Counted from the first letter of the stretch, positions 3,520 to 59,168 are shown. The stretch is DNA of 64,000 nt from an uncultured Planctomycetia bacterium (GCA_964634945.1 CAZWMG010000002.1:102661-166660), one strand, 5' to 3'. Numbers and translations: made by a program. Notes: generated from the sequence alone by a model not told the origin.

Positions 3520-6500
3520 ATGTTTTATACCAATAACAGAGGAAGAATAATATTTAAGTGTATTAGTATTATTATAATCCTCTGTTTTTTTATTCAGGAT
3601 ATCGCGTCAGCGACTAATGGCCTGCCATTATGGTCAGTAATTAATGGAAACCGTGTGCTTGATGCCCGCGCAAAAGATTTCACCAACCTCGCCAAGATAG
3701 AGATCCCAAAAGATTACGGCATAATCAAAGAGATCCATAATACCGGAAGCGATAAGATAATAATCAATATCCAGGACGCGCACGCTAATCTAGGTGCCCA
3801 GGAATCGATTAACAAGCTTATAGAAAGCCTTGATAATGATTACCAGCTCAAGCTTGTGGCATTAGAAGGTGCTAAGGGGAATGTAGATACCTCATTGTTT
3901 CAGTCTCATCCTGATAATAATGCCAGAAAAAAGATAGCAAAATACTTTTTAGACAGAGGCAAGATAAACGCTGCTGAATATTACAAGATAAGCTCAGATT
4001 CAGATATAAAACTTTACGGCGCGGAGAATGGCTCGCTATACAGAGAAAACGTTAAATCTTACATAGACTCGCTAACTAATAAGGGCAGCATACACAAGGC
4101 TATTATTACCTTAAAGAGAGTAGTCTCACAGCTTAAATCTAAGGTATATTCTAAGCAGCTCCTAGAGCTTGATAGAAAGAGGCTAGAATACAGGACAGAC
4201 GCAATATCATTTAAGGAGTATTGGAAATATTTAGGCGCGCAATCAAGCAGGTTGAGGATAGACATATCAGACTTTGAGAATATTCGCGCTCTTCTTGATG
4301 CCTCAGAGCTTGAGGATAGAATAGATTTTAGCGGTGCGGAAAAAGAACGCCAGGCATTGATAGAGGTGCTTACAAACAGCCTTACCGGCGATAATATAGA
4401 GCAACTCTTATCGGAAAGCATGTCTTTTAGGTTGGGTAGAATACAGCCGTCAGTATATCATAACCATTTAAGGGATTACGCCCTGTCATGCGGGATAGAT
4501 ATATCATTGTATCCTAATCTTTCTGGTTATACAGATTATGTCAATATCCACGATAAGGTCGCATTGGACTCACTCTTTATTGAGCTCGATGAGCTTATAG
4601 ATAGCGTGCAATCACAATTAGTCCGTAATGATGATCAGCGCCTGCTTGCCTCGATATCAAAGAGAGCGGATATTTTGATAGAACTTTTAGATGCCAAGAT
4701 TGTAAATAGAGATCTGCAGTATTACAAATCGCATAAACAGGATTTTATACCTCAGAACATAACGCACGAATTATCCCCTTTAATGGCAAGGTATGGCATA
4801 GAGGTTAATCTCGTACCTGAGATGAGGGTAATTTTAGAGGCGCTTCCCTCTGTAGAGAAATTCTATGATTTAGCGACAAAGAGAAACAAGGCGCTTGTTG
4901 ATAATACACTAAGCAAGATGCAAAAGGATAATCGTTCTCTGGCAGTGCTTGTAACAGGTGGTTTCCATACAGAGGGTATCGCTAATATATTGAGAGACAG
5001 AAATATATCATATATGGTGGTATTGCCAAAATTTTCGAAAGATGCGCTTGACAGGCCTTATGATGATATTGTCTTGAATAAGCGCTTGCCATTTGAAGAG
5101 GTGCTCTCAAAAGGTGAATACTATCTCCAGGCACCAAGTATATTCTCAATGTTTGAACCTGTGGCAGAACAGAGAATAGGTCTTTTAACCTTTATACTAC
5201 TTCTTTCGTTAGGTGACATGCAGGCAATAGATAGCGATGCCTTTGTGCAGTTGGGTAAGGATATATTTAAGGTAATTAAAAAAGGCCAGGGCATAACAGT
5301 AGAATCGATATCATCAGAAACTGACCCACTTACAGTTGAAGACAATACCGAAGAGACCGCTCGAAATTTAGTTAAGGTGCTTGAAACATGGAATAAAAAG
5401 CGCAGAAAAGAAGAGTCATCTGGTGAGGTGTTAAATAATACGTTGACACCGAATGATCTCGAGATATTAATCAGGAACATGCTTAAGGATACAGAACTTG
5501 GCAGGTCCGAGTTTGAAGAGACCGAATTAACAGCAGCGGTAAAAGATTATAAGAAGATAGTTTTGGAAGAGTCTGCTATCAAAAGCGCGGATTCCGCTGC
5601 TCAGGAGATACTTGAAAGGCAGTTTCAGAGGGCATTTGAGAATCTGCAAAGCTTAAAAGGTAAACCAGGCTATGATTTAGCAAAGCGTAAATTAGAACAG
5701 GTGCCGGCATATAAACACAGACTCGCTACGGCATTAGAGAATGTAAAGACTGAAGAAGACGTTGCTAATAAGGCCCATCTTGATACCTTGACAAAAACAT
5801 CTTCAAGCGGTTTAGGTAAACCTGTTAAGCATTTATACGGTAGACATGAGCCGGAATGGGAATCGATAGTATCGGGTTTAACATCATATATTATTGCGGT
5901 GAATCTTGTGAGCTTTTCGTTTGACCGAATGAATAAGGCCTACGTTACTTTAGGTGATGATATATTCTTTGTTTCTGTAAACGAAGACACCGAAAGCCTC
6001 GGTGATAAATTTTCAATCAGAACCAGCACAAAAGAGGAGATGGATGCGGATAGCGTAGAAATATTGCGCCCCTTAGCGAATGACTGGGTCAAGGGTTGGT
6101 CTGATATATTATATGATAGAAACAGACGCAGTGTCCAATTTGCGCTTAATGATATAGATACCATGATGCGTCATATTATGAGTTATAAGGGAAGTAACGC
6201 CATGATTATGAATGTTTTGGATGATCCTCGCGTAGAAAAAGAGGTACATAAATATATTGAAGTATTGTCGCCCAAAGTTGAAAGCGCGCTGAATAAGCAA
6301 TTAGAGAATAGGTTAAGCAATATTGAGCTTGATAATAGTTTGCCTGCGCATCAACAGGGTATAGATGAATTATATTATCTATATGGCAATAAGGCACAAG
6401 AGGTTCTTAAGGCCCTATCAACTCCGGATATTGCCAAAGCAAAAACATCCTCTTCTAGTGATATTACATCAATGCGTATATCAAAAGATCAGGAGGAGAT

Positions 6501-9500: not shown

Positions 9501-12500
9501 TTCGCACGTACTACAAAGTAGATCAGATAACCTTTATGCTCAGGTTGAGAAAGCCAAAAAGCGTAAACTTTCTAGAGAGACCTTGCCTGTCATAGATACC
9601 ATTAATAGCGAAATAGGTTTATTGATATTCAACACATTAACCCCTATTAGCAATATATTGAATGAGAGAGCAAGGCAATTTTATAATACTGAATTAGTTG
9701 ATCTTAACAGACGCCTTAAACAAGCCAGAGTAGAGGCAGACAGAATAAAAACTAATATAGATGGACTGGAAAAGAGAATAAACGCTTCTCTGAAAATTAC
9801 AACAAAAGAAGAGGTTCCAAAAGAGGCCCCAAAAGCAGATGCAAAGATAGGAGCTGAAGCCAGATCCAAAGCAGAAGTAGATTTGCTGAGTGAACATATT
9901 TTAAAGATAGTAACAGGTAAAACAGAAGGCCTGATATTCGCTTGGATTATTGATAGATATGAAAAAGCAGATACAGAGCAGAAAAAAGATGCTATTAAGC
10001 AGGAGCTGGGCAAGGCATATTTCGGGGTTACAGATTTTAGCATTGTAGACAAGAAGCTACGTGCGATAAACTCCCTTTATAAATATTATAAGAGTAAGGG
10101 GCTTGATATAGATATACCTTTGCTTGCAGAGCTTTTTAATCATAAAGATAAAACCCCTGACCAAGTAATAGATTTATTGGTAAGGGCGTTTAATGGAATT
10201 AGGCCGAATGAAGCGCTTAAAATAAATAATAACGCTTTTAACATAACTCGTGACTTATTAGAAAATTATCCCTCTCTAGAAGATTATCTTACTGATATAA
10301 CCATGCTCTTTAGGCCTGCAAAAGATGGCAGTATAAAGGTCGAGACTACTCTTATAAGATTAAAACTAAAAGCAGATAGCAAGGGAGCAGACGCAGCCAG
10401 CATAGCCGTAGGCAAAATATACAACTTAGTATCAGAGAACCTGCCTGAGAAGATTAAGGCCCAAGTACAAGAGGCAGAAGGCGCGGTTTCTTATTTAATG
10501 AAGCCATCAAAAATCCAGCAAGCATTGCTTGAAAAAGCAGGCTACACAGAGTATAGGCCAGGCCAGGCAGAGGCTATGAATATGCTTGTAGATGCAATAT
10601 CCGTTGAATTAAGAGCAGGTGGCGGTAAGACTATTGTATTAGGTGGTTCCGCGCTTTTAAGGCTTGAAGAAGGCAAGATACAGGGTGAAAAGGTATTTAT
10701 ATTGCTTCATGAAGATCAATTAGTACAGCAGGCCTTAGAAGGTGAGGATGGAATTAGGATGGGTGAAATCTTAAGTAAATGTGGCAGGGTGACAGGCTTT
10801 GTGCTGCCTGATGACAATACCCCTAATAAACTGCATTATGTTATGTATAAAGACGGCAAGGAGTTTCGTAATCCTGACAATACAGAGATATCAGCTGAGT
10901 ATTTTTATGCGGAATGTGAGATTGTGTATGCTGCCACAGAGAGGGTTATACACAGATATCAAGCGGAAATGCTTGGGAGTGAAAAAACAGCTTTTATTAA
11001 CAGCCTAAAAAGCAAAGAGGGTAAAGGCGTATTTGCACTATTAGATGAAGGCGATATACAGCTATTGTCTGATAACCCATGTGTAATATCCGGTATGCCG
11101 CTTGAAGACTACGCTGAAAGAATACAGGCAAGAAGATATATACAGTCGATGCTAAATGATGAAGTATTGCCTAAAAACTTTAATTCAGAAAAAGAGAAAC
11201 TCACAGAAGGCACAGATTTTTTAGATTATGTAAGAAAAATCAAGTATTTAGATATAGCGGAAGGTTCCGAAGAAGCCTCGCTTACTTCTAAGGGAAAATC
11301 AAAAATAAACAGGATGAAAAAGGCTATAATTAAACTCGCTAAAAAAGACGGTACTTATAATGAAACATTAAAGCATATCATAGAAGTATATTATGGCGAG
11401 TTTGTGTTGGAGGCTCTAAAGGCAAATATATTCTACAAAGAAGGCGATAACTTTACAGCTATAAAGGATGAAGATGGCAGAATTACCAATGTGCATGTTG
11501 TAACAAAAGATCTTACCAAGACAAAAAAGGGCATGTCTTTTGGAGAAGGCATGCAGCAGGCGATAGAAATAATGGCAGAGGTAAGGGGAATACATGTTCC
11601 CGGAGGGCCTGAAACAGGGGTAACTGCCGAAACTATGACATCGATGGCAGATACGACACAAGGGTTTTTAGAAAACAAAGATATTGTGAATGATTTCGCG
11701 GCTGCCAGCGGAACCATGCAGATAGATAGATTTAAAAGTAAGTATGAGGGCAAGAAAGTTGAAACAGTTAAAGGCCTCCCTGAAAAGCTCGATGAAAGCG
11801 CGGGATATACTGTTTTTGAGCAAGAAAATCAAAAGTTTGGAGAACTTATAGGAAGGTTGGGAAAGAGGCTAGGAAATAATCAGCCTGAGGTATTTTTTGC
11901 TGAGTCTGACGCGAAGGCAGAACGGCTCAAAAAACTAATAAAAGAAAAACTTAAGAATGGGCTTGAGGAAAACGGAATCATTATCCATATAGGTGATGGT
12001 AAGAATCCTGAGGGGTTGAGAAATGCTATTAAATATGCCGGTTACACGAATGTAATTACAATATTTACAAATATAGCTCAACGCGGTATTGATATTGAGA
12101 TAAAAGGAGAGAGCCTGCTTTTTGATGAGAAGACAGGCCGGTATAGAGATGGTGATATTATCTATGAGAATAGGCTTGCCGCTCCGGGGCTTTTTGTTAC
12201 TACTACAACGTCACAAGCCTGCGCGATAATTGAGCAGATGAGAAAACGCGCGGACCGTGGAAAAAATAGAGGTACATGGGAAGGGCTTGTATCATTAGAT
12301 GAGGGAGATTTGCGTTACAGAGAATCTCTTGACCAGCAAAGAGCAGGCCTGCGCAAAATAATAAAAGAATACGCAAAAGAACAAAATATGCTGATAGAGG
12401 TACAGGTAAAACGCATAATACTTGCCATGAGGGATGAGATAAAAGATATTAGTCAACAGCCGCAGGAGCTTGAAGGCAAATTTACAAGGCAAAGAGATAT

Positions 12501-15500
12501 AATAGCTAAGCGCACAGGTTCTCTAACAGCATTTAAGGAATTACTCGCAAATCTCCACTCAGGGATAATATTAAGAGCTATAGAGGAATCTTTCTCTCAG
12601 GGGCAAAGTTTAGATGAAAAACTAGAGGAGATAAGAAGGCTTATAAATAGCAGGCTGAGACAGCAAGAGCTTGTTGAAGAGATGCGGGATATTATAATAA
12701 GCGAAGAAAATGATAATAATAAGAAAAGAACGGAATATGAAAGAGAAGTTAGTAAATATCAGGCAGCGCTTTTAAGGCTAAAAGAGTCTATTGCGGGCTC
12801 ATCCGATAAACTAAATACTTTTCTTGAAACCATTGGGGCTGATAATTTAATACCTCAAGAACCAGATAAGCGCGCGGCATTACTGGAGGTTATAAATCAA
12901 CGTCTTATAAATGAACTGGCAAAATTCCAGACAGAACAACAGCGCTCAAGAAAACAGCTCGACCGCCTAGCGCATGATGCGCAGCAAGGAGTTGCCGGTG
13001 CATTTACACAATTCGATGCTGTTATCGCAAAGTCTACACAGGTAGCGCGTGATTTTAGTTCTAGGATTAACAGCAAGGACGGAATAAAAACATTTTTAAG
13101 CGTTATTCTTGCAGGGCAGGCAAAAGGTAAGGTTTCTGAGGCTAAGAAGCGTAAAGGCTTAACAATGCCCACAAAAGCATTGCCTGTTCTGGCTTCCATT
13201 CTGGCTGTATTAACAGGGCTTGTCTCGGTTTTATATAGCGTTGGAAGCATCAATACATTATTGTTGCCTTCTATTTTGGGGCTCTCTACTGTATTCCCAT
13301 TACTCTTTCCAATTATGGGCATAATCGCGGCGATGTTTTTGATCGTTAATATATACGTTCAACAAGGCTATGGCAAGAAGATAGGGGTTCTAGTCAAAGA
13401 ATCAGCCAAAGACTTTTTCAAGATTACAACAGGCACAAAGAGCATTGATACAGGTAGCCAGCTTGCTGACGCAAAGGCTTTCTGGGCCTCATTTGGAAAA
13501 TTTGCAGGTACAACATTATTGTTTCTGTTAGCAACCCCTGGACTTTGGTCAGGCGCCGGTATGTTAATAGCAGCGATTATAAACCCAGGTATAGTTATAT
13601 TTGGCTTACCTGTTATACCTTTAGCTTTTATAGTACTATGTTTTTCATTATTAGCAAACCTGACATTCCACCGTGTATTTAACAGCCAACTTGAGCGACA
13701 AAGGCATATAACACCTACCAGATTTCAAGCAGGCCTTAACGCCTTTGTGAGGGCTATTGCATTAGGCATAGGTATTTCATTTGCAATTCAAGTTGGCACA
13801 GGTGCTGTTTTGCTTACGCTTTTACCGATAACCGCTATTGTAATAACAGCCATAGTTTCATCTTTGGCTACAAAAAAACAAACAGGACGGTACTATAAAG
13901 AAAAGCTACCGGAATATATAGGTTGGGTTACAGGAGTTATCGGAATAGGGGTTGTGCTTTTACTTGCTAGCTGGATAGGTGCCGCTGCTGTAGCGGGAGT
14001 TGCAATGCCCGCATTACAGGTCGCATTGGCAGTTGTAGGTTTAGGGACAATATCTCTACAGTCTCTCAGTGCGGGCAAGGCCGCTAGTATCGCTGTTGGC
14101 AAAGTTAGTGATTCCTGGAAAAAGAAACAGGTATGGATAACGAGTTTTATCCAGAACCTCCTGCCCAATAACAGAACCATAATAATGTATTCTATGATGA
14201 TAGTAGCAATCCCTCTATTAGTAGGCGGCGCTGTTAATACGATTTTGGTTGTATTGGCAAGCGGAATAGCTATTTGGCTACTTAATAAATTTAATGTTTC
14301 AATAGGAAAGCGGTTAGGTCCTAAGTGGTCAAAGAGATTAGGTGGCGTATTTGGGCAAGCGATGATGTATTCAGCCGCGACAACACCGATTGTGCAATTT
14401 ACACAAATGGCTAATCAAATGGATGAAAGACAATACCGGCAAACACATATTACGCGGGTATCCGAAGCGATAAAACAAGGCCAAAAGAATTTTCAAGACA
14501 CGCTTGGAGAAATAGAAAATTATAGTCCCGATCAGCTCAAAGGGCTAAAGAACCTTACGAAGAATATAGAGGGGTTTGTAGATGGAATAATTACAGGTAA
14601 ACCTGCTCCAACAGCTGTACCTGATTTAACAAAGGAAAAAAAAGAGAAAAGAGAAAAGGTAGAGACAGCTGAAGTAGGAGAATCAAAAGAGGCACAGCCC
14701 CGCGCACCTGCATTTACTCAAACCCCACAAGTAAGAGAAGAAGCAGAAGCTGTAGCCAAAGCAGAAGAGGAAGCCAAAGCAGTAGCAGTGAAGAAAGCTA
14801 AGCTTCATGTCCACACAGTTAAAAAAGGTGACAGCTTATGGAGATTATCAATAAGGTATGCTAAAGGAGAGAGCAAGCTTTATCAATTGAGGTTATTCGC
14901 AGAGATTCTTAAAGTTAATAAGCAGTTTACTGATCCTCGCATTATACATCCCGGAGACAAAGTAACTATTCCGGTGTTAAGAGCTACAAAAATTGTACAA
15001 AAAACAAAACCACAGGTTTATGTAGTTAAAAAAGGTGACAGCTTATGGAGATTATCAATAAGGTATGCTAAAGGAGAGAGCAAGCTTTATCAATTGAGGT
15101 TATTCGCAGAGATTCTTAAAGTTAATAAGCAGTTTACTGATCCTCGCATTATACATCCCGGAGACAAAGTAACTATTCCGGTATTAACAGGTACAGTAGT
15201 TTTAGTTCCACCCCCACCGCAAGAAAAGGTAAAGGTAGAGTTAAAGGAGAAGGCAGTGGTTGCGGTACCTCTGCAGGATAAGAAAGAAGAGCAACCGGTA
15301 AAAGAAAGAGTGCAAGATACAAGCGTACAAGTTAAGGGTGATAAGGCCGCAGTTGCGGTGTTACCACAGAAACATAAAGAGATTAAGCCAAAAGTAGCTC
15401 AGCCCATAGCTAAAAAGAAGGATACTGCAGCGAAAGCAGCTGTTGGCAAGATTAGTGTTGCGCCTATAGTAGCAAAACCTATTTTACAAGAAACTGTAGA

Positions 15501-18500
15501 GAGGCCAAAGGCTGCAGAGCCTACAATATCCGCACCAGAATCTTTGCCTGTCAGACTCACAGCAGATAAGAGATTATTGCCCCCTGCTGAACCTTTGTTT
15601 CAATTAGCTATTCAAGAAAACTTTAAGCCTAATCCCAAAGATGGAACATTGAGTATCCCCGAAGGATTGTCAAATACGATTCCTGCTAAATATCTTGCTG
15701 ATATGATAGGCGCGCACTATTTCGAAATTCCCCCTAATGTTCAGGGATGGAAATATTTTGATACAGTTATAGAAAACGTTAATAAGCGGTATCCTAATTC
15801 TGTAAAGATAGAGACTCATCTTAATACACGTGATTACATAGGCTTGTTTTATGGCAAAAGAGTAAAGATTGTAAAGGGAGAAGAAACTGTAGAAGTCATT
15901 CAACCTGTGTTGCTGGATATTAAAGATGGTGAAGTCGATGTTACGCCATGGAAAGTGGGAGATGAAGTATCAAGGATTTTAGAGCATAAAGATACAGCTT
16001 TATTGGAGTTCGGTTTAGCTAAAAGATTTGGTGAACTTAGCGCGTTAGAATTTAAAGAGCGCTTGAAGAAGGCAGATGTACTAATAGATTATTATGTCAA
16101 TAATGTCCTAAAAACCAAAGGGGAAGTTGCTAAGGTTGTATTCCCGGGACATGGTGGAGAAAATTATGCAACGTCATATTTTGGCCAAAAAGTTGGCGAT
16201 ATCTTAACAGAAGGCCAGCCTGTAATAATGTCAGCACAGCTAGTACAGCAAGCATCTCAAATACAACAAGCACGCGTTGCTGGACAAGAGAAGAAAAAAG
16301 TTGAGGCAAGTATCCCTAAGAAGTTGCCTGATATTGTTATAGCAAAAAAAGCATCAAAAGCCCCGCCTGCGAAAGAAGCCTTCTTGCAAGAGACGAAGCC
16401 CGAACTTGTAGAGACAGAGGCGATCCCCGAAGCAGTAAGCCGACAGGATTTCGCAAGGCAATTAGAAGCATTAGAAGCTCTTATTGCGGCTAAAGAGGCA
16501 TTAACCCGGGCAGAGAGCAATATAGCAAGCATTCAGCTCAAAAGAGACGATCTGGCAAAGAGTTCATTAGGATTAACGCCTAGCATAGGTTTCTATTCCA
16601 ACAGAGTAAATGAAGTGCAAGGCAGCATAGAAGAGTTGGATTTAAAACTTGCTGCAGATAAGGCAGGAGAAGAACAAGGTAAGCTTACGGTTCAGCGTAG
16701 TGCATTATCAAGGCTTGTTGTAACATTAAGAAACACCTTATTAGCAGGTGAGGTCAGGGCAGGAGACATAAAGGAAGAAGCCGGCAAATTAACGATGAGA
16801 ATAGCGCAGGCCAAATCAGCGGTAGGAGAGAAAAGGGCATATGTGCAATCCGTTCTTGCTCAGGCAGAAGATGCTGGATTAAAAATAAGCGCATCGGATA
16901 GTACTGAAAATTTAAGATCCAGGTTAGACTCATTGAAAGAGCAGGTCCCATTTTCCGCCCTGTTAGTTAGGAAGATTCTTGAATGGATTAGTGGTATTCG
17001 CGAGTGGATAATACAGATATTGATAGAATTTAATATCATAGAAGGCCAAAAAATCTATGGACAGAAAATTCTGCGGAAGAAATCTCCTCCTGCATTCTTT
17101 TCGCCGGTGAGAAAAGCCGCGCAAAAGAGTTTAACAGAGGTTCCCATGCTGCCTCAGATCGGAGATAAGAGGCAGATAATAGACTATGATAATATGACGC
17201 GTGAGCTGGCGTCTATTATATTGCAAAAGGAGGAGAGCCTGCAGGGACGAGGACTTATTACCCAGGTTTACTTGAAGAAAATAATAGAAGATTTTGCCGG
17301 AAAGAGGTCTTTATCAGAAAAAGAAGAGGCCAGGCTCGCGGAGAAGACATTAAGCTATCTTTCAGATGTTTTAAATATAAGAATATTAGACTTAAAAACA
17401 AGAGCTCTTGAAGAGACAAATCCTGACACAGCATTAGCACTGCTTAATGGGCCGCTACAATCTACGAAGAGGCAGCTGCAGATAGTAAGAAATACTATGC
17501 GTGAATATAAGGGGCAAGTTATTAGGTCTGAAAACCGCTCTTATGTTTCAAAGGGTATCGAAGATGCGTTAATGGCAGCTGAAAAGAGATTAAATGGGAT
17601 ACTTAAGAAAGATATAACACTGGGACAATCACAGCAATTAGCTGTTTTAAGCCGTGTATTGAAGGGGGCTAAAGAGGACAAGACGCCTATTACATTAGGT
17701 TACCTGAAGTCGAAGGTGGATGAGGTATTAAAGAGTAAAGAGGTAAAAGATGAGAAGGCCTTGTTGATATCTGTATTAGCAGATGTTAAAGGCATGCCTT
17801 CTCTTGCTGAACTTGAGATGATATATGAGCTTCTTGCCATGATCAATAAAGAGAGGGCAGAAGAGCTCTTGCTTGAGCAGGCTATAGATAAGAGAGCTAT
17901 TGAGGTCATATTTAAGGAAGAGACATTCGGACTTTATAATAAGCCTGGAAGCGTTTTTGAGAGCATTTATAAAATGGCACAGGCCTATACAGAAAGCCTG
18001 CAAGAACTTTATATACCAAGGCCGGAAAGAACTGTGAATTTAAAAGCGGCAATGGATAGACTCAATAAAACAAAAGAAGCGCTTGAATTGGCCTTAAATG
18101 GCAATAGCTGGGGTATGCTTCTTGATGCGCGCTTTTATATGGATATGGATTACCAGAGCGACCTGCTTGCCTCAGGAGAGACAGCAGGCGAATATGGGAA
18201 TGTCTTTGGCGTAAATACAGGACTGCTTATAAAGTTTTCAATAGAATCGAAGAGAATAGCTCCGAAACTGGTAGTAGACTATTTGAATGCATTGAATAAC
18301 ATGAAAGCGATAGAGCAGGTATCCAGGTTTGAGGAGATGGCGCCTTCTCTTTATATTAAGGCAATCGCGGATAGTATACAGTCAAGAGCCAAGGCTACAA
18401 GCGTGGAATTATCTGCGTTAAAAGGCACAGGTTCTACGGCACTCAATAAGCTTTTTAAATTAAAGGAAAGCGCACTGAATGCTAAAGCGCAGGGACTCGA

Positions 18501-33500: not shown

Positions 33501-36500
33501 CGAGGTTTTCTTAGGTCAACTTAAAGAGACATCCGATCCGATAGGCGCGGAATTCAGGATAAATGATAACAAAGGAATGGCTATAAAAGATATTGCAAAA
33601 CAGACCGAACCTTTTGTTATTGAAACAAGATGGTATAGCAATGAAAAGTTGAGAAAGCAGATTGCCACTAATGAAGCAGGAACAGCGGCTACTACTATCT
33701 ATTATAACCAGCAGACAAACCAGGAAATAGGCAGAATAGTAACCAATGAAGACGGGACATTGATAGTAGATATAGGCGTATTTGAGGGATATGATGAAGA
33801 TCATAACGCTATTGTACAGATGATAGATCCTGTAAGAGCCAGCATGAAGGTACATGAAATAGAGGAACTTGCCACAGAGTTAAGGCAGGGTAATAACTTA
33901 ATTATCAAAAGAGACAATGGCAAGATAAAAATAGGCACGTTTGCCTTTGATCCAAAGGTTATTATGGAACGCAGATACAGCGGACAGTATCTTGTTTCGC
34001 AGGAGACAGAATCAGTTGCCGGAAAATCGTGTATACAGGTATACTATGATAAGAACAGAGTGCGTGAATCGGGCAGGGTAGAAAGAAATGTAATGGGCGA
34101 TCTGGTGGGTATAGGCAGATTTATAGGGTATAACGAAAGAGGAGATGCCTATGTAGTAATGCTTGATCTTAGAAAATTGACATCGTTATCAGGATTAGGC
34201 AGAAATTTAGTTCACATGCTTGAGGAGGGCAAAGAGCTTCCGAATAACTTTGGTATACCTGAGGATGCTATGTTTTTGAAAAATTTAATTGAAACCAGGG
34301 TATATAGCGGTGAAAGATTGATGCACTCTACAATATCAGGAATTACAACATCTGTATTTTACAATAAGGATACAGTTCAGGAGATAGCAAGAATTGAAAG
34401 AACACGCGTGCCTGTATACAAGATAAGTGATAAAGGTAAGGTGACAGGAAGTGAGGCCCTTACTCTAACAGAAGAGGGGGATGTAGATTTTAAAGGCAGA
34501 ATAACCAGCATAGGTACGTTTAAGGGGTATGATAGAGAAGGAACAGGTATCTCTACTGTTGAGATGGTAGATACGCGAAGGGCTGGATTGAGCCATAGTA
34601 AAAAAGGACCAAATAGCAGCAAGCCTGTTGATAGTAGAATTCAAAATATAATGGCAAGATTTATCAAGGGAGAGCCTGTATTTTTGCAAGATGACGAATA
34701 TAAAATATTTCCAAGAGCTATAACAAAAAGGCAATATTCAGCAGAAGACCTTTATATCGAAACAGCTTTTTCAGAGGGTGGTTTGGTAGAAACAGAAGTA
34801 AAATATAAAGAAAACTATAAAGGTGAAAAACTCCTTTCAGAAGAAGGTAGGAAGGCATATGGCGTAGATGGTAGCGACGCTACACGAAAGCGCATGCTAA
34901 GACAGACAGGCCTGCTGTTAGGATATCAGGAAGAAACCGGATTTGCCAAAATAAGTATGAAAGATGAGATTACTGGCAGGGGATGGACAGAGATCCATAA
35001 TGTTGCAGGTATTGTAAAAGAGCATATAGAGGTTGACTCAGAAGGTATACTTGACCGTGCTGTTTATAATTACGATGAAGACTGGTTGGCTACTACAAGT
35101 GAAACAGAGGTTATTGATGGAGATGGAACAATAGCAGGTACATCGTATCGTGGGAAATTTAAAGGTTATATTAATGGTTACGCTTTAGTTGAGCTCCAAA
35201 ACGTGAAGAACGAAGATACGTGGCAGGAGCTTCTTAATCAGATAGGTGAATTAAAAGCAAAGGCACAAGGCATTGTAAAGAATGGTAATTTTATAGCGAC
35301 AACAACGGATGTCTTTGATTACGAAGGGCAATTAGGATTATTAGGCACAACCACAAGTATACATGGATATGAATATGACCCAGCTATATCTTTTATCAGA
35401 AACATGCTGCGTAAAGACACGCAAAACGCGGTTACGGAAAAATACGCTATTGATAGATACGGCATAAAAAGACCGGTAGCAGAGCTGACTAGAGCCGATT
35501 TGATAGATGGGAAACCTCTTATACTTTATCACAGCAGGTTAAATGATTATGCCTGCCAGAGCCTTGATAATAAAGAAGGCCAGGTAAGAGCAAAGATAGA
35601 AGGGCTTATTGTAGAAGGTAAATTTGTGCGCCTTTCTATAGAAGTCCCAAGATATATGGGCGTATTTAAACATTTTGGCCATATGTCAAAAAGCCGTGTA
35701 TATCGATACTTCCAGAAGCAAGATCTGGCAAATGACCTTAAGGTTCTAGAAGGCCTATGGGATTTGCACGCAGATGAGACGGATACAGATATTGCCAAAG
35801 CGCTGATGCAGGAAGGCCTATTAAAATATAAACGCATGTTAAGCAAAGATGGTGCAGCTATCCCCATTGAAGAGTTGACGTTGGATGACTTCATAAGTAT
35901 AAGTAATGATATGATAGATATTAAGAATGTTCCTTTATACCAGACCATTACGCCGCTTTTTCAGCATGCGGTTCAAGAGGCAGAGGATGGCAGAGGAAGG
36001 GTCGCGCTCAAATATACAATGGAAAGACAACAGGATGGTACATTCATAAGGAGAAAAGCGGTGTTTTTGAAGTATTATGATGACAGGAAAGACCCCCGTG
36101 TCCCTACTAGCAGCCCTAAATATGGACTAACTGTCATAGCGGATCACAGCAAGACGAATGCGGTTCATAATAACGGCAGCATAAACTATGGCAGGCCCGT
36201 GGATGAGTCTTTTTTTGAAGGCCTTTATAATAAAATGGTACGCATAAGACAGCATGGTTTTGAAAGTAAATTAACCTCGCTGGTAGACAGGAATGGCTGG
36301 GGCAGGGTTGCTGCTAAGCATGAAGGAGTTCTTGCAGAAGGCGAAGAATGGAACAGGTACGCTAAATTTATAGCTACAAGGCACATACTTAAGCATTATG
36401 ATGACTTCACTGAGAATGGCCTGGGCATACTGCGCGTAGCAGACATGGGCCAGACATATGTAATCACAAGCACGACCAAAGATGGCTCATACATATATGA

Positions 36501-39500
36501 TGGAAATTCACCTTTTAAGGTATCGTGGTTTAAGGAGATAGCAGAAGATGCAGAAATAAAGAACTATATCTTAAACCTTAAGATGTTAGAGTCCTGGTAC
36601 GAAAAGATGGATTCTAATGGATTATTAAGAGAGTTTCTTATTACATATGCGGATATGTCAGGCATGTTCAAGCCTTTCAGAGAAGCATTAAGTGACAAGG
36701 CTGCCCACGATATTGCAAACAAGAACTGGGGCGTAATCAGTGAGAATAAATCCAATGCAAGGTTTGATTTTGATCCATCAGTATCTGAAAAACTTATTTA
36801 TCTATATGGTAAAGACAACTATGGGGTATCTAACATACCGGACATGGTGAAAGGTTTTTATATTGGTTTGGCATATAGTAATGGCAGACTAGATAAGAAG
36901 GATGGCGCCAAAACACTTTTTGATCAATCAGTATTGTATTCGGATCCAAAACTTAATATCAAAGAAGTAGATAGCAAGGGTAATGTTGCGTATTTTCGCG
37001 AAAACCTAATATCTGGCTTACCTCGTATCTTTGTTAAGAATAACAGAGGATTTCCTATAGATGTACGATTTGGATTTATAGATCCGGTTACAGGTGAGAT
37101 GATAACGCAGAAAAGAAGCACGTATAAGTATGGCAAAAAAACGGATATCGCTACTGCCGCCAGTACGTTTTCGATTTTTGATACAAGAGATATGTTCGTT
37201 TCAAGTAAGTCTATCATGAAAGCACTTTTGTCAAATGGCACAATTCTTGCTCAGGAATCTTTATATAGTAGAGTTGGGCTTGGCATCAAGCAGTTTGAAA
37301 AACGTACTAATGCTTATAAAACCAGAGGCTCTAGAAGGGTTATTGAGAATGAAGGTTCAAAATCGACAATAGAACTTAATAGGTGGGGGCTTGAAGAATC
37401 TTCTCAAACGTTGGATAAGGGTGACTACATAACACTCGCGGTCTCTGATGACAAAATAGGCGTAGATAGAAGTAGTTTGTCAGTTCCGGTTAAAGAAAAA
37501 ACAGGCATTATTAAGTATAGAGGGGTTATGCTTAATCCGTATTTTCCCGATAGGGCCCCTGAATATTATGAAATAAGGGAAGTGCTCTATTATAATCAAT
37601 CCGGAGATGTTATGTTTAGAGGTGATGAGTGGAGTGATAGATATGGAAATATTGTTGTAAGGGTTGTAAACAAGCATACTAATGACGGCGACGGATTTAT
37701 AGCGACCTATTTCTTTAACAGGGAAGGTTATAAAGAGTATATTGCAGATAGTGTACTTAGCCAGGATAAGACTAAAAACATAAAGCTTACTTTTTCCAAA
37801 AAAATCGACAAAGAAATCGATGCCAGCGAAAGTGAATATTTATATCTACATATTGACGTGGAACCTTCTTTAGCTGGAGATATCGAGTATTCTCTGATTG
37901 TTAGAGATGAGAATACAGAGGCCATTATTAGCCATGACTCGCTATTTAGTCCCTACAGTGGCAATAAAATGCGAGAACCAACAAGAGAAGATCCTGAGCG
38001 CGAAAGCGCGGTTATCACGAATTCAGAGTGGAAAGAAGACCAATCTGTGCTGGTCTTGCCTGTTAAAGAACTGGTTAATCAGGGTATCGATGTATCGCAT
38101 ATCAGAGATATGGAATTAATATGTAAGTCCGGATTTAACGGAAGGATTAGAATTAGCCCTGTTTACAGGCTTGGCGACGCGACAGGCTTGAGCCGCGTAA
38201 AAGTACCTAAATTAGAACAAGAGGCCTTACCTGTCGTTGCTCTGCGAAGCGCCGGAGAGCATGTGATTAAGAACGCGCGAGTCAACATAGAAGGTAAAAC
38301 TTATTATACGCTTACAAGTATTTATAGTGCTGCTAATACACGTTTACGAGATGAGGTAACTATAGAGTACATAAATGAGCTTAATGGTAAGGCTGAAACA
38401 AAGAGTATCATTATCTATTATGACGAATATGGCAAATATCCGGTTCTGAGCGTAGACAAATTGACGGGAGGCAATCCACGCGCGTATGCGGTAAGAGAAA
38501 AAGATGGATGGATATATATATGTTCCACGCACCCTATTACAAATATAAAGTCAGAAGGCGCTTTTAGCAAACAGGCCTTAAGGGATGATATCCCGGCGTG
38601 GGAAAAGCGCGGTGAATTCGTAATGATAGCGAAGATGGAAAAGGGTATATTGGAATATGACTATAACAAGGCTTATAATACACTTATACAGTATATAGTA
38701 AGGTCGGTTAAGGGTGAAGATGTTGAGCATTACTCCAGTTCTCTTGCGCCGCTTATGACGCCTGATTATCTTATCGAGCTCCTTGATTATACAGGAGAAA
38801 CCCTTGCAAAGGAATTTACCAGAAACATAGATGTTGATGTTCCCGAGTATGATCTTTCTAATATCTCCCCTTACCTATCAGGTGGAGAGGTTTTATCTAG
38901 AATGCAGAGCTTTAAAAAGGCATTTCAGCCTATAATTCAACACCAGGCGCGCGCCCCTGATGATAAAAAACCAACGCTCTTTTTAGACGCAAAAGACTCT
39001 GATATAATGAGCCTATATGATAACAGCATATTAATGCCCGCTTTGTGTATGTCAGGCCAACAGCAAAAGGCAAAAGAGATAATATCGTTTGCCTTATCCA
39101 CCCCACAAGATGCTGAGACCGGTTTAATATATGACCAGTTTTACGCTAAAACAAACCATCCTAAGCTTGGAAGCAGTAGAGACGTTACTTTGCATTCAAA
39201 TGTTTATTTTTTAATCAACTCATTAAGCTACTATCTTGAAACAGGAGACGATGATTTTCTAAAAAGTACAATAGATCTGGCAGATAACCTTATCACAGGA
39301 CAGTTATTAGACCGGGAATCAGGTTTATATTTTGAATCGACAGCGATACAAAGTATGGTAGCGCTCCAGTCTGATTATAGGGAGATTAAAACTGACGACC
39401 AGATCCTTATGCTTAATCTTTGCGATGCGCTGCTAAGTGACCCAATAAGGCAAAATATCGGAAACAAGCGCATCGCGGTAATTGAGAAAACAAGAGACGG

Positions 39501-42500
39501 CATACTATTGGCGCTTAAAGATAAGAAATTAGTAGACTCGGAAAATTCTATTATTTACAGGGGTTTGTATAAAATATTTAAGAAAACAGAAGATCACCCA
39601 TATACTTTGTTAGGTTACGGATTTATGCCAGGGCTCTCAAGCAAGTCATTTTTAAATGTTATTTCGTTTAATGCTGACGGGGATAAGCTCAATTTGAGTT
39701 TCAAAGACGTTTTTGATAGATTCGAGTCTCACTTTATAGTATCAATCGGAAAGATTAATAACGATGTTATTGCCGGACCAAACCTCGCAGGCATTGACCA
39801 GGGCGATGTTATATACACAGAAGAGTTGATGAGCCTAATAAACCTACTCCGCTTGGAGATAGAAAATTCCAGGGATATAAAAAACAAGGATTATTACAGG
39901 AGAAGGTTGGAATTCTATTCAAGGTCTCTCAGTCACATAGTTGATATGTCAAAAAACTCCAGCCTGATGGATATTCCGCTGGTTGTATCCATGCAAGATG
40001 GCAAGATAGCGGATACATCCAAAAAGAGTGTGGCTCACAGGCACAGGGCAGCAATTTTAAATAACCTTTATCGTTCATCAATAGTCACTTCAGCGGAAAA
40101 CTTTTACAGCAGTATAGGGTATTCACCTGAGAAGATACAGGGCGGCACATTTTTCCGAAAGCTAAAGATAGCAGCGGATAGACAGGCATCTATGCAAAAA
40201 TCCGAGACACAAGAGATCTCAGATGAGAGTTCGAAAAAATATATTATCGCCTTTATTCTGATGATAGCGGCGTTGGCATCTCTTGGTATAGCAAGTTCTT
40301 TTTACAAGGCAAAGCCGTACAAGTCGACCAAGCCTTCTCCGAAAGGTGATGACAGCGGTGATGGAGAAGGTACCCCTCCTGCTGATGAAGGCACAAAAGA
40401 AGCTGTTGTGGCAGCAACGGTATCAAGCTTACAGAAAATTACTATAAAGGCACTTGCTATAGTTAAAAAGGCGAGCCTGCCGAAAAAACTGATGATCTTA
40501 GCTGTTATGTTAGCAATACCGCTCTTACTATCTAATCCGGCATTGTGTGCTGGATTAGGTCTTCTAACTCAACAATCAGTTGTTGCCCTTACCGGTCTGC
40601 CGCTGATATCTTCCGCTTTGAATTGGATAAGCTCATTAGGTGCGGTTAAATTAATATATATCGCGGTATCGCTTGCCTTTCCGGCGTTAATCCTTGCTTC
40701 AAATTACATAACCTCTTTCGCAAGAAAGATATGGTTTAGCACTAAGATGCGCAGTATCGCAAAAGATGGCAAAGCCAAACTGTACGATAAAGATGACATG
40801 GAAATAGCCCTTACCAGGTGGAACAATATGATTAATATGACCAGCGATGTTTCAGATAAGGAAAATAACGTTGTTGTAAATCACCCCAGAGTAAGGAAGG
40901 CAGACGGACCGATTGAGGTAAATTTCCTTTTTAGTCTTCGGGTTATTTATACATTGGCATTAAAACAACATAAAGAAGAAACAAAATTAAGCGATGACGA
41001 TCTTATAACAAAGACAGATGACCCGCTACTTAATGGCCTTGACACTTTTGTACTTATGGTTGGAATGTATATGCGTAAGGTTATCTATGACTCAAAAAGA
41101 GATGAGAATGGCCAATTAGTAGATAGTAACCACATATGGTCAAGGCTCGAATCTTATTTTTATGAAAAGAGAGAGCTTCTAAGAGATGCGATGTCACAAA
41201 ACAATAAAGCGGAATTTAATGATATACTGATAGATATGGGGATTGCCCCGATAGCGCAAAAGAGCGCAACAAATGAAGCGATATTGGAGATAGTCGAAGG
41301 TTATGGAGATGCAAGCTCTGAGGAATTCAGAGACGAGCTGGCAGAAAGAATAGGTGTTTCAGCTGAAGATCTGGGTGTAAAAAAGTTTGTAGAGGATTTT
41401 GAGAATTTTACTATACAAGAGGATTTGGCAAAACCTATCCATCCATGGGCGCTGCTCGCCGCGCGGCTATTGCCAAGGTTCCTGCTTGCTGCGGTTGGAG
41501 CGCTTATATTTAAGGCAGAGGCATTAGGCGCCACTGGTTTCTTAGGTGCTTTTATCGCAGGCCCATTAGCAGCTTTATGGCCTTATCTTGCTATTGCGGG
41601 AATAGTTATTATTCTGGGCTCATTGCTTAATCTGTATATTGGTAGGCATGCTAAATTAAATAAACTATCCGGTACATTAGGCACTGTTTCGCGTCTTACA
41701 AAAATAGGCGCATTAATCGGGCTTACATGCCTTGTTGCCGCTATTTCGCTTACGCCATTAGCTGCGGCAGGCGCTCCTTTAAGCATAATGTGGTTAGCCA
41801 AGCTTATTATAATCAGCTATCTTACTTTCGAAACATTTAGCCAGATATTCTTCAGGCATTCAATAACATGGCTTTCTCTTAGGTATCATTTCTCACCAGC
41901 TGTATCTACGGGTGGCCCTGGTTCTGTCATATCATATGTTACTTTATACGCGCTTACAATAGCTTTCGGAGCGCTTATGGGATTTAGTACTTATAATTTC
42001 TTTGTACAGTTTCAAGCTTTAGATACAATAGGAAGTTTCTTGCAATTAGTAGGGGGAGTGCTTGTATTTATTAATACCTTATATTTGACTAATTATGGTT
42101 TCTGGCAGATGCTTACCGGTGCAGCTTCAGGGGCCGTAAAGTTCCCACTTCAATTATCAGCCTTGATACTTTCTGCCGGAGTCTTTACCTTTGCCTTGCC
42201 GGCATTCTTACCGATTATACCTATTGCCGTGTTACTGATAAATAAGGTTATTAGTTGGATAGTACCTTTAAATAAAAGAAAGCGCCTAAAAGATGAGGCT
42301 GATGAGCAAGATAAAAAGACAGTTCTTGTATATATGGGCGGTGACGCGCTTGGCATGTTCATTAGATTGGCTGATCCCGTAGGGGAATTTATTAACAGAT
42401 GGAAAGCCTTAAGAGGAGAGAATTCCGAAGTTCTTAGTGCAATCAGAAAAGAACTTGGCTGGAAGGGCCTTACTTCGGAGAAAGAATTAGAGGTAGTAAG

Positions 42501-45500
42501 AAAATGCCTGGAAGCATTAAATGCAGCGGAACAAAAAGATAAAGTTAGCCTATTCCATTTGAAGCAGCTTGAAAAAGAATCTGATATGCCAAATATTTTG
42601 AAGATAAATCCAGGTACAGAAGAAAATAAGAAGCTTATAATAGATGGCTGGAGAATAAGAAGGCATCTGGTGGAGATGCTTGGTAAGGCAGGCTATGCTC
42701 AGGATACAGGGATTAATCTTGCAGAACAGGCAGAAAGAATAGGCCAGGATAAAAGCCTAAGCGGTAAGGTATTATTCTATTTCATGCAGAATAAGTATAA
42801 TATGGGCACCGGAGGTGAACCGTATAATTTGAAAACCATAGGGCTTGCTGATGGAAATGATTTAGGCCAGAGAGAACTTCTGGCATTGTTGGTGGAATAT
42901 TTCTTAGGTAACGCAAACAAGGATACGGAACTTATAGATCCCCCTAAAGCGGCATATGTATTATATGACTGGACGCCGTTTGGTTTTAAATCCGCTGCTA
43001 TGAACGCTATTGATATGGTTCCCGAGCACTCATCAGATATAGGTTCTATGGTTGTTATGGACAGGGATGCCACGGTCCATGATCTGGATAGTTATATATA
43101 TGATTTAAAACGAATACGCCGTGATGAAGAGATCGCGATAATAGTGCCTGGCAGGGGAACTACCAACACGCTTACTACAATAGGCAAGGCTTCACAGCTT
43201 ATAGAGGAAGGCCATAGATCGTATTTAAGCGGTGTAATGGGGCTTTTAGGCGGAACTCAGGGCGAGTTCGTTGGTACAGGATGGGGCAACATGTTAAGAG
43301 TTACCATGGCAGAGTCTCTCGAAGCGCTAGGTGCTCCGGATTACCCAACACCTTCCATTACCAAGGCGTTACGAAAAAAACATAAAGGATTCTTTGATAG
43401 GTTATTTGCCAATAGTTTTGGCCTTAGAGGGTATGTACCGAATGCGGTTGGTATAAGCGAAGATATTTGGGCTGTTGTTCAGGCCGGTGAAACGCAGATC
43501 GGACTTGGTAGAATTCCGAAGATGCTCGTATCCAAAGCCTTTTGGCACAAGATACGAGAGACCTTTACTCACGCGGAATGGTTTACAGCCTTTCCAAGGT
43601 GGTCAGGCGGCCTTATGCAGATGAACAATGATATTATTATGCAAAGAGCAACATTCTTTGGTCCGTTTAGTGTCTTTGCAAAAGAGGTGAGGCAATTAGG
43701 GGGCGATTTCTTCACTAGTTCACCTTTCGCGCTTCTTAATATATTGATAATGACCGTTGCGGTATGGGGAGGATTCAGCCCGTTTTATGGTATCCTGCTT
43801 GGTTTTTGGCTTGTAGGGTTTGTGTTTACTAATATATTAATGGTTCATGGGCTCATAGCTTATCTTGAAGGAAGCGGCTTTAATACCATAACAGCATTAG
43901 CCTCAGGTCTTATAGTTGGGGCTTTAATGCCATGGAACCTGCCTCTTATCGCAATAGGTTTTGTTCTTGGAGGATTCATCGTAGGCGGTAGTAAGTGGTT
44001 ATTAAGCAGGCCAAGGGATATGATATTATTTCCTTTACAGCTTGTTATACACGCCTTTGCGCAGATTAAAAACGCCTCTTTGATATCTGTTAAGGCCGCA
44101 AGAAAGCTGGAATCTATGGCAAGTAGGGTCAATGATAACGCAGGTGCATGGGTAAAAGATGCTTCAGAAAGAATGTCTCTCAAGTTTGGCTTATCAGGAG
44201 CAGCATTACCTGTTTCTAGCATAATAGATATACCTGCGGTTAAGAGTGATACCAAGAAAAACTTTATAAGCATGCGCAACATAGCATTTTTAGGAGCCGG
44301 GTCTGTTTTGATAAGCATGGTTGCAGTATACGCGCTTAATATCCAAAATGTTGTAATGCTTTTGGCGGGATTGATATTTAGTGTAGGTATTCTTGAAGGG
44401 CCAAATTATACAAATTTAAAAGAAGGTGGTTATTGGATACGGAATGAATATATGCGGAGAATAGTTGTTTTTGCGCTTAATATTATGCCAAAGGTAGCAG
44501 GAGCAACAGTTGCCGTAACAACGCTTGTGTGTTTACATTTCGCCAGAATTATGCTCCTAACCAATCCATTGGCCGCAGCTATACTCTTTTCTTCAGCTAT
44601 CGCTATAGCAGGCATTGTATATGGCGTATGGAGAAGTACAGATCATTATAAGGTAATAGCTCTACATAAAGCTATCTTGAAAAAGGCTAAGGATAATAAG
44701 AGTATTTTAGAAAGTATGCATCTAAAATATGGCTCAAATGTAGAGTTTAATGACATGACTAACCTGGTAAAGAATAATTACAGGGATATGCTATATGATA
44801 TTGTAACAAGCAAAGAGTATAAAGGCCCAGAAGCATTTGTGAACCACTTAAAAGACTTAAAAGACTTAAAAGACTCAAAAGACTCAAAAGACTCAAGAGG
44901 CTCAAAAGACTCAAAAGACTCAAAAGACTTAAAAGCCTCAAAAGAGAAAGACTTAAGAAAAATAATTATAAGTAAAAGCTTGAAAAAATTAGATACAAAT
45001 TTACTGATTAAGAGAGAGATAAGAACCAGGCTTGTTTCAGAGTTTATCCGCTCGTATAGGCTTAATCTACTTTTGTTCGTATGGATATTTCTCCCAAGTT
45101 TACCGGCGAATATTAATTACTTTCTGCATTCAGGAGGAGACCGTATAATAGAAACAGCATCAGAGTTTTTCAAGCCATTTGTCTTGCCTCTGCAGGTAAT
45201 GTTTTATTATATATTAGCAGGGCAGATTGTTGGTTCTGTGCAGCTTGCATATTGGAAAAACAGGACAGTTAAGATTACAAGGGGTATCGACAGGTTACCG
45301 TTAACAGGCAATAGACAAAAAGCAGAGGCATTATTGTCTTTACTTAAGATATATCTGGAGCAGAGGAGTTATGGTTATGTAAAGAAGACATACAATGATA
45401 TTAAGCTTGTTTTGGGTGCAACGCTTGATTCGTCTCCGATAGAGAGTACACAGGACGATTCTCCATCGCAATCGCTATCACAAACAGCTACTGGTTTTGA

Positions 45501-52543: not shown

Positions 52544-52552
52544 AAGGATAAT

Positions 52553-59078: not shown

Positions 59079-59079
59079 A

Positions 59080-59143: not shown

Positions 59144-59168
59144 CGTTTAGAGCTATAAAAGGAAAGAG

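Follow-up and report, generated by a model that had tools for sequence, protein, structure and literature searches.

The Omnitrophota are tiny, probably predatory bacteria in which giant proteins have already been described, with many transmembrane (TM) regions, divergent SecA DEAD and preprotein-binding domains and mostly unannotatable sequence, and with genes for binding-protein transporters and glycosyl hydrolases downstream (West-Roberts 2023, bioRxiv 10.1101/2023.11.21.568195). A catalogue of 916 proteins of at least 10 kaa (thousand amino acids) has a longest member of 147,155 aa, with 5,761 counted overall, and reports TM helices or a signal peptide in 94%, recurrent flanks of glycoside hydrolase family 2 (GH2) and an architecture cluster defined by a 'PF07517 SecA DEAD-like' domain (Nielsen & Lui 2026, bioRxiv 10.64898/2026.06.07.730766). 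The literature interprets the Omnitrophota giants as a means of attaching to prey and degrading walls, and proposes a role in self-insertion or export for their SecA-like domains; their topology is unvalidated in published work (West-Roberts 2023; Nielsen & Lui 2026). The giant genes are a recognized puzzle, with thousands known, almost all of the sequence unannotated and an inferred role in predation or host attachment. The gene described here occupies 3520..46422 (+ strand) of a 64,000-nucleotide stretch of DNA, the whole of which is called the window, from an uncultured Planctomycetia bacterium (GCA_964634945.1 CAZWMG010000002.1:102661-166660). It encodes a 14,300-aa mosaic protein, anchored in the inner membrane, that belongs to the already described 'giant Omnitrophota protein' kind, and its main new element is a conserved C-terminal membrane module that looks like a sugar-polymer synthase when modelled and is recognized by no domain database.

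A first-pass annotation of the window had reported a single 42.9-kb open reading frame (ORF) for a 14,300-aa protein, and translation bears this out: the ORF begins with ATG, runs for 14,300 codons and contains one stop, at its end. With a stop probability of 0.071 per codon from the ORF's own base composition (about one stop per ~14 codons), the log10 probability of 14,300 stop-free codons is -458, which excludes chance as the origin of the open frame. The competing frames are short, as that annotation had also observed, with 1,284 and 1,498 stops and a longest open stretch of 76 codons in the other two + frames, 411-957 stops and a longest open stretch of 204 codons in the three - frames, and only two antisense ORFs of at least 150 aa (156 and 152 aa). 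GC content is ~40% along the whole ORF, and in every 3-kb tile codon usage correlates with that of the neighboring genes at r = 0.75-0.92 in frame versus 0.07-0.42 off-frame, so that the entire ORF resembles coding sequence of this genome. The window contains no N runs. The ORF is thereby confirmed as a real coding gene. Its ranking among the largest bacterial genes was overstated, since 5,761 proteins that reach 10 kaa are on record for the Omnitrophota, the longest of them 147,155 aa; at 14,300 aa the protein passes the 10-kaa catalogue threshold of Nielsen & Lui and falls below the 30-kaa 'giant' threshold of West-Roberts.

From the N-terminus, the protein runs through a signal-peptide-like segment, a conserved N-terminal module, a lineage-specific segment of ~1.6 kaa, a SecA-like ATPase, ~10 TM helices, two LysM domains, an orphan region of ~5 kaa, two repeat arrays within a beta-rich region of ~3 kaa, and a conserved membrane module of ~1,100 aa with a GT-A (glycosyltransferase A) domain between two TM bundles. 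Pfam and NCBIfam, run on the whole protein, on 5,000-aa tiles and on overlapping 1,000-aa tiles, recognize only two of these, the SecA-like region and the LysM pair.

The C-terminal module is built around a soluble, predicted cytoplasm-facing, GT-A glycosyltransferase-like domain of ~490 aa (aa 12909-13396; 42244..43707, +), preceded by membrane bundles 2a (aa 12241-12401) and 2b (aa 12645-12908), which lie within 40240..42243 (+), and followed by membrane bundle 3 (aa 13397-13704; 43708..44631, +). The bundles supply ~8 helices on each side, modelled at low confidence, and it is their Lys/Arg-rich loops that would place the domain in the cytoplasm. A word-indexed search with the C-terminal 1,550 aa gave no matches, because TM-rich words swamped the candidates; an exhaustive HMMER search with aa 12600-13750 was used instead and returned 146 cluster representatives, of which 88 have E < 1e-30. 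The module mostly occurs near the C-terminus of 4,200-4,400-aa proteins, and some carriers are 5-7.7 kaa long; those that are named come from metagenome-assembled genomes (MAGs) of Omnitrophota and Verrucomicrobiales. At all 19 of the metagenome loci it lies inside very large open frames, of up to >6,870 aa. Three relatives (P0048, P0103 and P0143) carry both this module and the N-terminal one, so that the two ends define a protein family in which very different middles have been inserted between them. No Pfam or NCBIfam family matches the module, either in the giant or in its relatives.

In a 19-sequence profile (A3), the invariant residues are D13181 (MDRDA), R13212, E13229, G13254-W13255 (in TGWGN, 13252-13256), E13314-D13315 (GISED), R13346 and R13360-W13361 (PRWSGG). 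The soluble-domain profile has no matches among PDB sequences, so that a structural comparison was needed, and two AlphaFold2 models were built from an alignment of 27 relatives. For model 1, which covers the whole module, the top 23 Foldseek matches are all membrane-integrated processive synthases of glycosyltransferase family 2 (GT2), namely hyaluronan and chitin synthases and CslF6 (best E 1.1e-3), followed by other GT-A enzymes. For model 2, which covers the soluble domain and the next helices (mean pLDDT 61, pTM 0.61, core blocks 80-93), the top 21 are chitin, hyaluronan and cellulose synthases (best E 2.2e-4, probability 1.00), with five matches at E <= 1e-3 and BcsA at rank 49. In model 2 the invariant D follows the strand at 270-276 and the invariant ED opens the helix at 408-424; we take these to be the GT-A and BcsA positions of the DxD motif and of the TED motif of the 'finger helix'. 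The distance from ED to RW is 46 residues in the module and 40 in a verified segment of E. coli BcsA, and the invariance of the two motifs together with this BcsA-like spacing argues for a processive-type active site.

According to the models, then, aa 12909-13396 have the GT-A fold of a catalytic domain like that of the processive GT2 synthases. As in BcsA, CesA, CslF6 and the chitin and hyaluronan synthases, a predicted cytoplasmic GT-A domain sits between TM bundles, with a conserved acidic residue that follows a beta-strand, an invariant ED that opens a helix and an invariant RW ~45 residues later. Unlike those enzymes, the module matches none of the Pfam GT2 families (Glycos_transf_2, Glyco_trans_2_3, Cellulose_synt, Chitin_synth), has a ~40-residue insertion before ED and many more flanking helices, and stands at the end of a 4-14 kaa protein instead of alone; its activity is predicted only. 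Several further observations weigh against the assignment. The Q of the QxxRW motif of the GT2 synthases is absent, and the 'DxD', which the window has as DRD, is invariant among the 19 relatives in its first D only. In an hhalign comparison with the verified TED...QxxRW segment of BcsA, only PRWSGGxxQ and IRWARGMVQ align, in the right register and without significance (E 0.055), and no sequence or profile link of the module to any glycosyltransferase family was found. The confidence of the models is moderate (for model 1, mean pLDDT 53 and pTM 0.46), and their TM-scores to the synthases do not exceed 0.29.

It is possible, rather than likely, that the C-terminal module (aa ~12605-13640) founds a new family of membrane-integrated processive polysaccharide synthase-translocases in MAGs of Omnitrophota, Verrucomicrobiota and related groups. 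If it does, the conserved core job of the giants would be to make and extrude a glycan and not only to bind or digest prey walls, and the synthase encoded here would act in cis with a SecA-type motor, beside a dedicated UDP-sugar regeneration enzyme. With its invariant D, ED and RW, this database-dark, GT-A-like module turns part of the 'dark' sequence into a hypothesis open to mutagenesis and enzyme assays, and it connects the giants of the Omnitrophota with Verrucomicrobiota proteins that form a ~4,300-aa family.

In one lineage from lake metagenomes (L009, L010, L028 and L029), the module is divided between two ORFs that overlap and use different frames. The break falls inside the GT-A domain, near the position of giant aa ~13250, and recurs in at least six contigs taken from independent assemblies (ENA and JGI); either the gene is truly frameshifted or split, or the same sequencing error has arisen repeatedly at this position. 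Genes are also split or fragmented in the neighborhoods of the relatives P0051 and P0075, which made these neighborhoods uninformative.

The part of the protein that holds the GT-A domain had been called GT48-like in the first-pass annotation, and its sequence FFDRLF...GISEDIWA recalls FKS1 by eye. Fks1 of S. cerevisiae (GT48) is likewise large and multi-TM, with a cytoplasmic glycosyltransferase domain flanked by TM bundles, and the short by-eye resemblance extends to FDRLF and SEDIxA. Unlike Fks1, the module has no match to Pfam Glucan_synthase (PF02364), at E <= 10 with queries of 291, 560 and 1,151 aa or at E <= 0.5 with the tiles, and no sequence or profile match to Fks1 in the PDB, phmmer and the family profile both leaving Fks1 unmatched. 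FKS1 residues 1150-1318, retrieved from the PDB by a sequence query (E 5e-111), align with the A3 profile in hhalign at a probability of 0.4% (E 0.15) and in a different register, and by fold Fks1 ranks 50th (E 0.54). With Pfam, PDB, hhalign and fold ranking all negative, membership in GT48 fails, and this identity was rejected.

The SecA-like ATPase motor (aa 2345-2950; 10552..12369, +) comprises a first nucleotide-binding domain (NBD1), a preprotein-binding domain at ~2566-2683 and a second nucleotide-binding domain (NBD2). Pfam recognizes it as P-loop_SecA (E 8e-8) and SecA_PP_bind. A four-sequence profile (A1) of the region finds 24 SecA proteins of solved structure, with E-values from 1e-45 to 7e-27, across NBD1, the preprotein-binding domain and NBD2; on its own, the window sequence reaches E. 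coli SecA at E 4.5e-4. The catalytic motifs are intact, Walker A being GGGKT (aa 2367-2371), Walker B DEGD (2509-2512) and motif V TNIAQRGIDI, and motif VI keeps its arginines, so that the motor is probably active. As in canonical SecA, NBD1, the preprotein cross-linking domain and NBD2 follow in the same order with intact catalytic motifs; unlike canonical SecA, the region has only ~20% identity, sits at residue ~2,350 of a giant chain, lacks a clear helical-wing or C-terminal domain and is directly followed by its own ~10-TM bundle. Matches to E. coli SecA stop near residue 600-640 and those to T. maritima SecA reach ~735-752, and loss of the SecA scaffold domain is probable, though not fully settled.

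The ~10 TM helices that follow (membrane bundle 1, aa 3220-3589; 13177..14286, +) form five uncharged hairpins of 37-66 aa, joined by loops that each hold 5-8 Lys/Arg and 0-4 Asp/Glu, and the bundle is conserved in the two syntenic giant genes of L002 and L005. This pattern of hairpins and Lys/Arg-rich loops looks more like an anchor than a channel. A SecY-like identity for the bundle was considered and dropped for want of support, a three-orthologue profile finding nothing among PDB sequences.

The SecA-TM segment as a whole (10552-14286) is ~22% identical to its counterparts in L002 and L005, which share 72% with each other there, and the closest relative of its SecA-like part is an Omnitrophica fragment (P0001, 39% identical). 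The N-terminal module, by comparison, is 57-71% identical in the same two loci, and the much lower value for the SecA-TM segment, together with the closer match to an unrelated fragment, argues for module replacement rather than drift. The comparison thus points to a SecA-TM cassette that has been swapped between otherwise orthologous giant genes. The gene evolves fast and by module exchange, and the swap shows a mode by which giant genes evolve. The lineage-specific segment between these two regions (aa 742-2344; 5743..10551, +) has a weak hydrophobic segment at aa 782-801 and no database match. The ~1,660 aa of aa 742-2401 correspond to only ~172 aa in L005, which is free of Ns; this length comparison uses L005 only, because L002 has a 100-N gap at the junction.

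The N-terminus itself begins with a signal-peptide-like segment (aa 1-31; 3520..3612, +), identified by eye as RGRIIFK, a hydrophobic core and ASA|T, where cleavage would occur; it is conserved in L002 and L005. The conserved module that follows (aa 32-740; 3613..5739, +) has no assigned fold. Its QDxHxN..AQ, EGA and GGFH motifs are invariant, and it is 22-25% identical in the 5-6-kaa relatives P0048, P0103 and P0143. It has no Pfam matches, and a six-sequence profile (A7) found no match in the PDB. The QDxHxN and GGFH motifs may hint at a tentative resemblance to the ChaN, TIKI or erythromycin-esterase-type superfamily.

Membrane segments were called from hydropathy analysis and the positive-inside rule, which yield ~30 hydrophobic helices in four clusters along the giant. 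By this rule the bundle after the SecA motor begins and ends in the cytoplasm, which suits the ATPase; the LysM domains, and ~8,300 aa beyond them, would then be cytoplasmic as well unless they are exported by another route. The two LysM domains (aa 3765-3887; 14812..15180, +) score 52.5-58.2 bits against a cut-off of 20.9 in Pfam PF01476 and are recognized by NCBIfam too. The pair is a tandem duplication with 98% identical DNA (TRF 14817-15195, period 207 bp), an identity that marks the duplication as very recent and the site as one where a short-read assembly could have the copy number wrong.

The first gene of the window encodes an AcrB-type pump (174..3275, +) and lies just upstream of the giant gene. 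Relatives of this pump were found in six MAGs, at 95, 92, 88, 84, 70 and 49% identity; three of these are labelled Candidatus Omnitrophota and three (95, 92 and 84%) 'uncultured Planctomycetia'. In three of the six (L001, L002 and L005), the sequence that follows AcrB codes for the beginning of the same giant. The identity to the window protein is 75% over the 165 aa available in L001, 57% over aa 1-996 in L002, where the frame stays open for at least 2,390 aa and runs off the contig, and 71% over aa 1-741 in L005, where it stays open for at least 3,274 aa and runs off the locus. All three orthologues start with the same MFYTN... peptide, which backs the ATG at 3520. Over aa 1-740 the ratio of nonsynonymous to synonymous substitution rates (dN/dS) is 0.12-0.19 versus 0.05 for AcrB, with dS near saturation; the N-terminal ~740 aa are constrained, yet their rate of evolution is 3-4 times that of the pump. 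For the 3' end of the gene, an independent Logan assembly of SRR29008691 (contig L007) contains the last 506 aa (13795-14300) and the entire next gene at 100% identity.

The gene is assigned to an Omnitrophota bacterium of the PVC (Planctomycetota-Verrucomicrobiota-Chlamydiota) group from the AcrB comparison and the best protein matches. The pump shares 70-88% identity with those of MAGs that carry the label Candidatus Omnitrophota, where the giant gene is syntenic, and Omnitrophota proteins give the best matches to the SecA part and to the C-terminal module; for the two nearest MAGs (92-95%) the depositors chose the label 'Planctomycetia', and the window holds no marker gene for phylogenomic placement. 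Like the SecA-type giants of this phylum, the protein exceeds 10 kaa and has a predicted signal peptide and numerous TM helices; its SecA NBD and preprotein-binding domain have diverged far from housekeeping SecA, most of its sequence defies annotation, it contains internal repeats and it evolves fast and as a mosaic, and GH2-type hydrolases and a solute-binding-protein importer are encoded downstream. Unlike them, it is small (14.3 kaa versus the published 30-147 kaa) and has a LysM pair and a GT-A membrane module; neither LysM, GT48 nor the C-terminal GT-A membrane module is mentioned by West-Roberts (2023) or Nielsen & Lui (2026).

Genes for a type II secretion system (T2SS) or pilus upstream and for PilZ downstream are frequent in the class and not universal, being reported for 13 of 14 giants (West-Roberts 2023; Nielsen & Lui 2026). 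Here no T2SS or pilus genes were found upstream within reach, where a resistance-nodulation-division (RND) efflux system lies instead, and no PilZ genes were detected downstream, the small ORFs there (214, 207 and 200 aa) having no Pfam or NCBIfam match. The domains of the 'Archaeovorin' subtype (glycosyl transferase, methyltransferase, glycosyl hydrolase, peptidase and NUDIX) were not found by Pfam or NCBIfam in the whole protein or its tiles, and those of the 'Dockerin' subtype (dockerin and TSP3 repeats) gave no Pfam matches at E <= 0.5 in the tiled giant. The window protein is in neither subtype.

Taken as a whole, a reasonably probable account is that of a real Omnitrophota giant gene whose product combines a SecA motor, an extracytoplasmic arm and a glycan-making GT-A module. 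The SecA-like motor, at the cytoplasmic face, would help to drive stretches of the very long chain to which it belongs into the inner membrane or across it, and the LysM pair and the beta-rich repeats would form an extracytoplasmic arm that binds the cell wall or prey. The GT-A module would take nucleotide-sugars from the cytoplasm, make a glycan from them, most likely in a processive manner, and pass it through the flanking helices; the product of the adjoining co-directional fusion gene, which joins nucleoside diphosphate kinase (NDK), pyrophosphorylase and phosphoglucomutase, would supply the sugars and recycle UDP, while the downstream GH2-like enzymes and ABC (ATP-binding cassette) importer would bring sugars in. 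Set against parts of this account are the simple charge rules, by which the LysM pair and the ATPase would share one side of the membrane, a conflict that sharpens the question of how such chains are inserted and exported, the absence of a T2SS or pilus cluster from the 10 kb upstream in the syntenic L005, and the absence of the fusion gene from all 19 of the other module loci, so that its functional link to the module rests on this locus. The same absence, the missing Q of QxxRW, the GH2 and ABC-importer flanks and the published view that the giants serve to attach to prey and degrade walls would all suit a surface adhesin and predation factor that makes no polymer, of the sort proposed for Archaeovorin- or Dockerin-type giants. 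In such a protein the GT-A domain would be a non-processive, lipid-carrier glycosyltransferase (as in ArnC, DPMS and GtrB) decorating the envelope of its own cell, or a catalytically dead scaffold, and the neighboring sugar genes would serve the catabolism of prey-derived sugars. This appears rather unlikely, as Foldseek ranks only membrane-integrated processive synthases at the top for two independent models, TM bundles of ~8 helices stand on both sides of the domain instead of a mere C-terminal anchor, and ED and RW are invariant in 19 diverse relatives at a spacing close to that of BcsA (46 versus 40 aa). Moreover, hydrolase, peptidase and dockerin domains were not found in the giant by Pfam or NCBIfam.

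The architecture first proposed for the protein went further than the glycan-making account, in that Lys/Glu/Leu coiled-coil spacers (~70% of the length) were to join SecA-like, TM, LysM, beta-barrel and GT48 (beta-1,3-glucan synthase) modules into a machine threading through the inner membrane, the wall and the outer membrane. Much of its parts list holds: the protein is a mosaic, and the SecA-like module (Pfam E 8e-8, E 1e-45 against PDB SecA, intact motifs), the peptidoglycan-binding LysM pair (52-58 bits against 20.9), several alpha-helical membrane bundles by hydropathy and two repeat arrays, A and B, are all present. A membrane-flanked glycosyltransferase-like domain does lie where the GT48-like module was placed, and FFDRLF...GISEDIWA does recall HPDFINATF...LNEDIYAG of FKS1 by eye. 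The spacers do not fare as well, with L at 10.1%, K at 7.9% and E at 7.5% (K+E+L 25.5% overall), ~5% of residues in K/E/L-rich windows (100 aa with at least 40% K+E+L) and ~3% flagged as coiled-coil-like by a crude heptad filter. Nothing indicates an outer-membrane beta-barrel, and all membrane segments look like inner-membrane helices, being helical hairpins with Lys/Arg-rich loops on one side and, in bundle 1, two cytoplasmic ends; a trans-envelope machine of this kind is therefore very unlikely. An assembly artifact, in which separate genes or strain pieces were joined in frame or repeats were mis-assembled and no 14,300-aa polypeptide exists, is held to be highly improbable. It could draw on the middle of the gene, for which a metagenome scan with aa 4001-8900 found no relatives, so that aa ~4,000-8,900 are covered by no independent assembly; this also counts against the reading of one giant gene. 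The LysM duplication (98% over 207 bp) and the near-identical units 2 and 4 of array A could mislead short-read assemblers, so that the number of repeat copies may be wrong; a separate 6,442-aa protein (P0041) corresponds to the C-terminal ~5,200 aa; and the module is divided over two ORFs in one lake lineage. Yet an accidental in-frame join over 14,300 codons is negligible (log10 P = -458) where the other frames are stop-rich, GC and codon usage are even along the ORF and the same as in the neighboring genes, and the window is free of N runs. Three MAGs have the 5' end in synteny, the Logan assembly has an identical 3' end, relatives hold the same modules in stop-free frames of >5,000-6,870 aa, and genes of this size or bigger are documented on complete long-read genomes of Omnitrophota.

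Between the LysM pair and the C-terminal module lies an orphan region of ~5,000 aa (aa 3902-8895; 15223..30204, +) in which the coding signal is intact; Pfam and NCBIfam tiles, homology searches and the metagenome scan found no domain or relative for it. Repeat array A (aa 8938-9346; 30331..31557, +) has five units of ~82 aa, and the near identity of units 2 and 4 implies a recent duplication of a two-unit block (~164 aa); together with the LysM duplication, this shows that internal expansion is ongoing. A Gly/aromatic-rich, Leu-poor and beta-rich region (aa 9135-12172; 30922..40035, +) is collinear with P0041, an Omnitrophota protein, at 30.5% identity. It encloses array A minus its first two units and the whole of repeat array B (aa 9785-10421; 32872-34782, +), which has 5-6 units of ~115 aa with the hairpin-type pattern T.VYYDK...G.I..IG.F.GY. 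The C-terminal tail (aa 13705-14300; 44632..46419, +) has a weak HEAT-like signal, and the last ~300 aa of the giant are 25% identical to the C-terminus of P0041. Within the tail, 11 copies of a 9-bp unit, ACTCAAAAG (Thr-Gln-Lys), follow one another in frame at 44846-44945 and could be a contingency or length-variable tract.

The giant gene is preceded by a Shine-Dalgarno ribosome-binding site (AAGGGGG, 3506-3512, +) ahead of the ATG and by a promoter-like TTGACT-17-TATACT (3361-3389, +), TG-extended and matching 10 of 12 consensus positions; both are consensus matches only. No terminator-like site was seen after the stop, between the giant ORF and the next gene, and all genes in the window are co-directional (+). 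The next gene (46584..52415, +), which is the same as that on Logan contig L007, encodes the 1,943-aa fusion protein, with NDK at aa 106-228, a UDP-sugar pyrophosphorylase-like region below the Pfam cut-off at aa 492-707, all four phosphoglucomutase/phosphomannomutase domains of a phosphoglucomutase or phosphoglucosamine mutase at aa 951-1460 (best NCBIfam match archaeal GlmM) and ~480 unannotated C-terminal residues. It would be a candidate supplier of UDP-sugar and recycler of UDP to UTP, with the full set of activities in one polypeptide. A 611-aa ORF (52517-54352, +) follows, with a faint fucose-pyrophosphorylase-like signal (E 0.008). A solute-binding protein (SBP_bac_1; 56702-58012, +) and two ABC permeases (BPD_transp_1; 58185-60053, +) were identified by Pfam, and all three also follow a module-bearing giant ORF in L024, at 60-64% identity. 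The ORFs of 214 aa (54565-55209, +), 207 aa (60050-60673, +) and 200 aa (62607-63209, +) have no significant Pfam or NCBIfam match. Two GH2-type TIM-barrel proteins (55286-56572 and 60676-62571, +) match Glyco_hydro_2_C at E 4e-11 and 3e-13; both match the TIM-barrel catalytic domain only, and since the usual N-terminal sugar-binding and immunoglobulin-like domains are missing, they may represent a divergent hydrolase family.

On the 5' side, the 10 kb upstream in L005 show what lies beyond the edge of the window, with a ROK protein, a TolC-like outer-membrane efflux protein, an HlyD adaptor and two AcrB pumps, which is a complete RND efflux set. The ROK-family protein precedes this set, and the first gene of the window corresponds to the second pump. 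Within L005 1-13099, the TolC-like protein carries an AMIN domain, and one of the AcrB pumps has a C-terminal DeoR-type helix-turn-helix.

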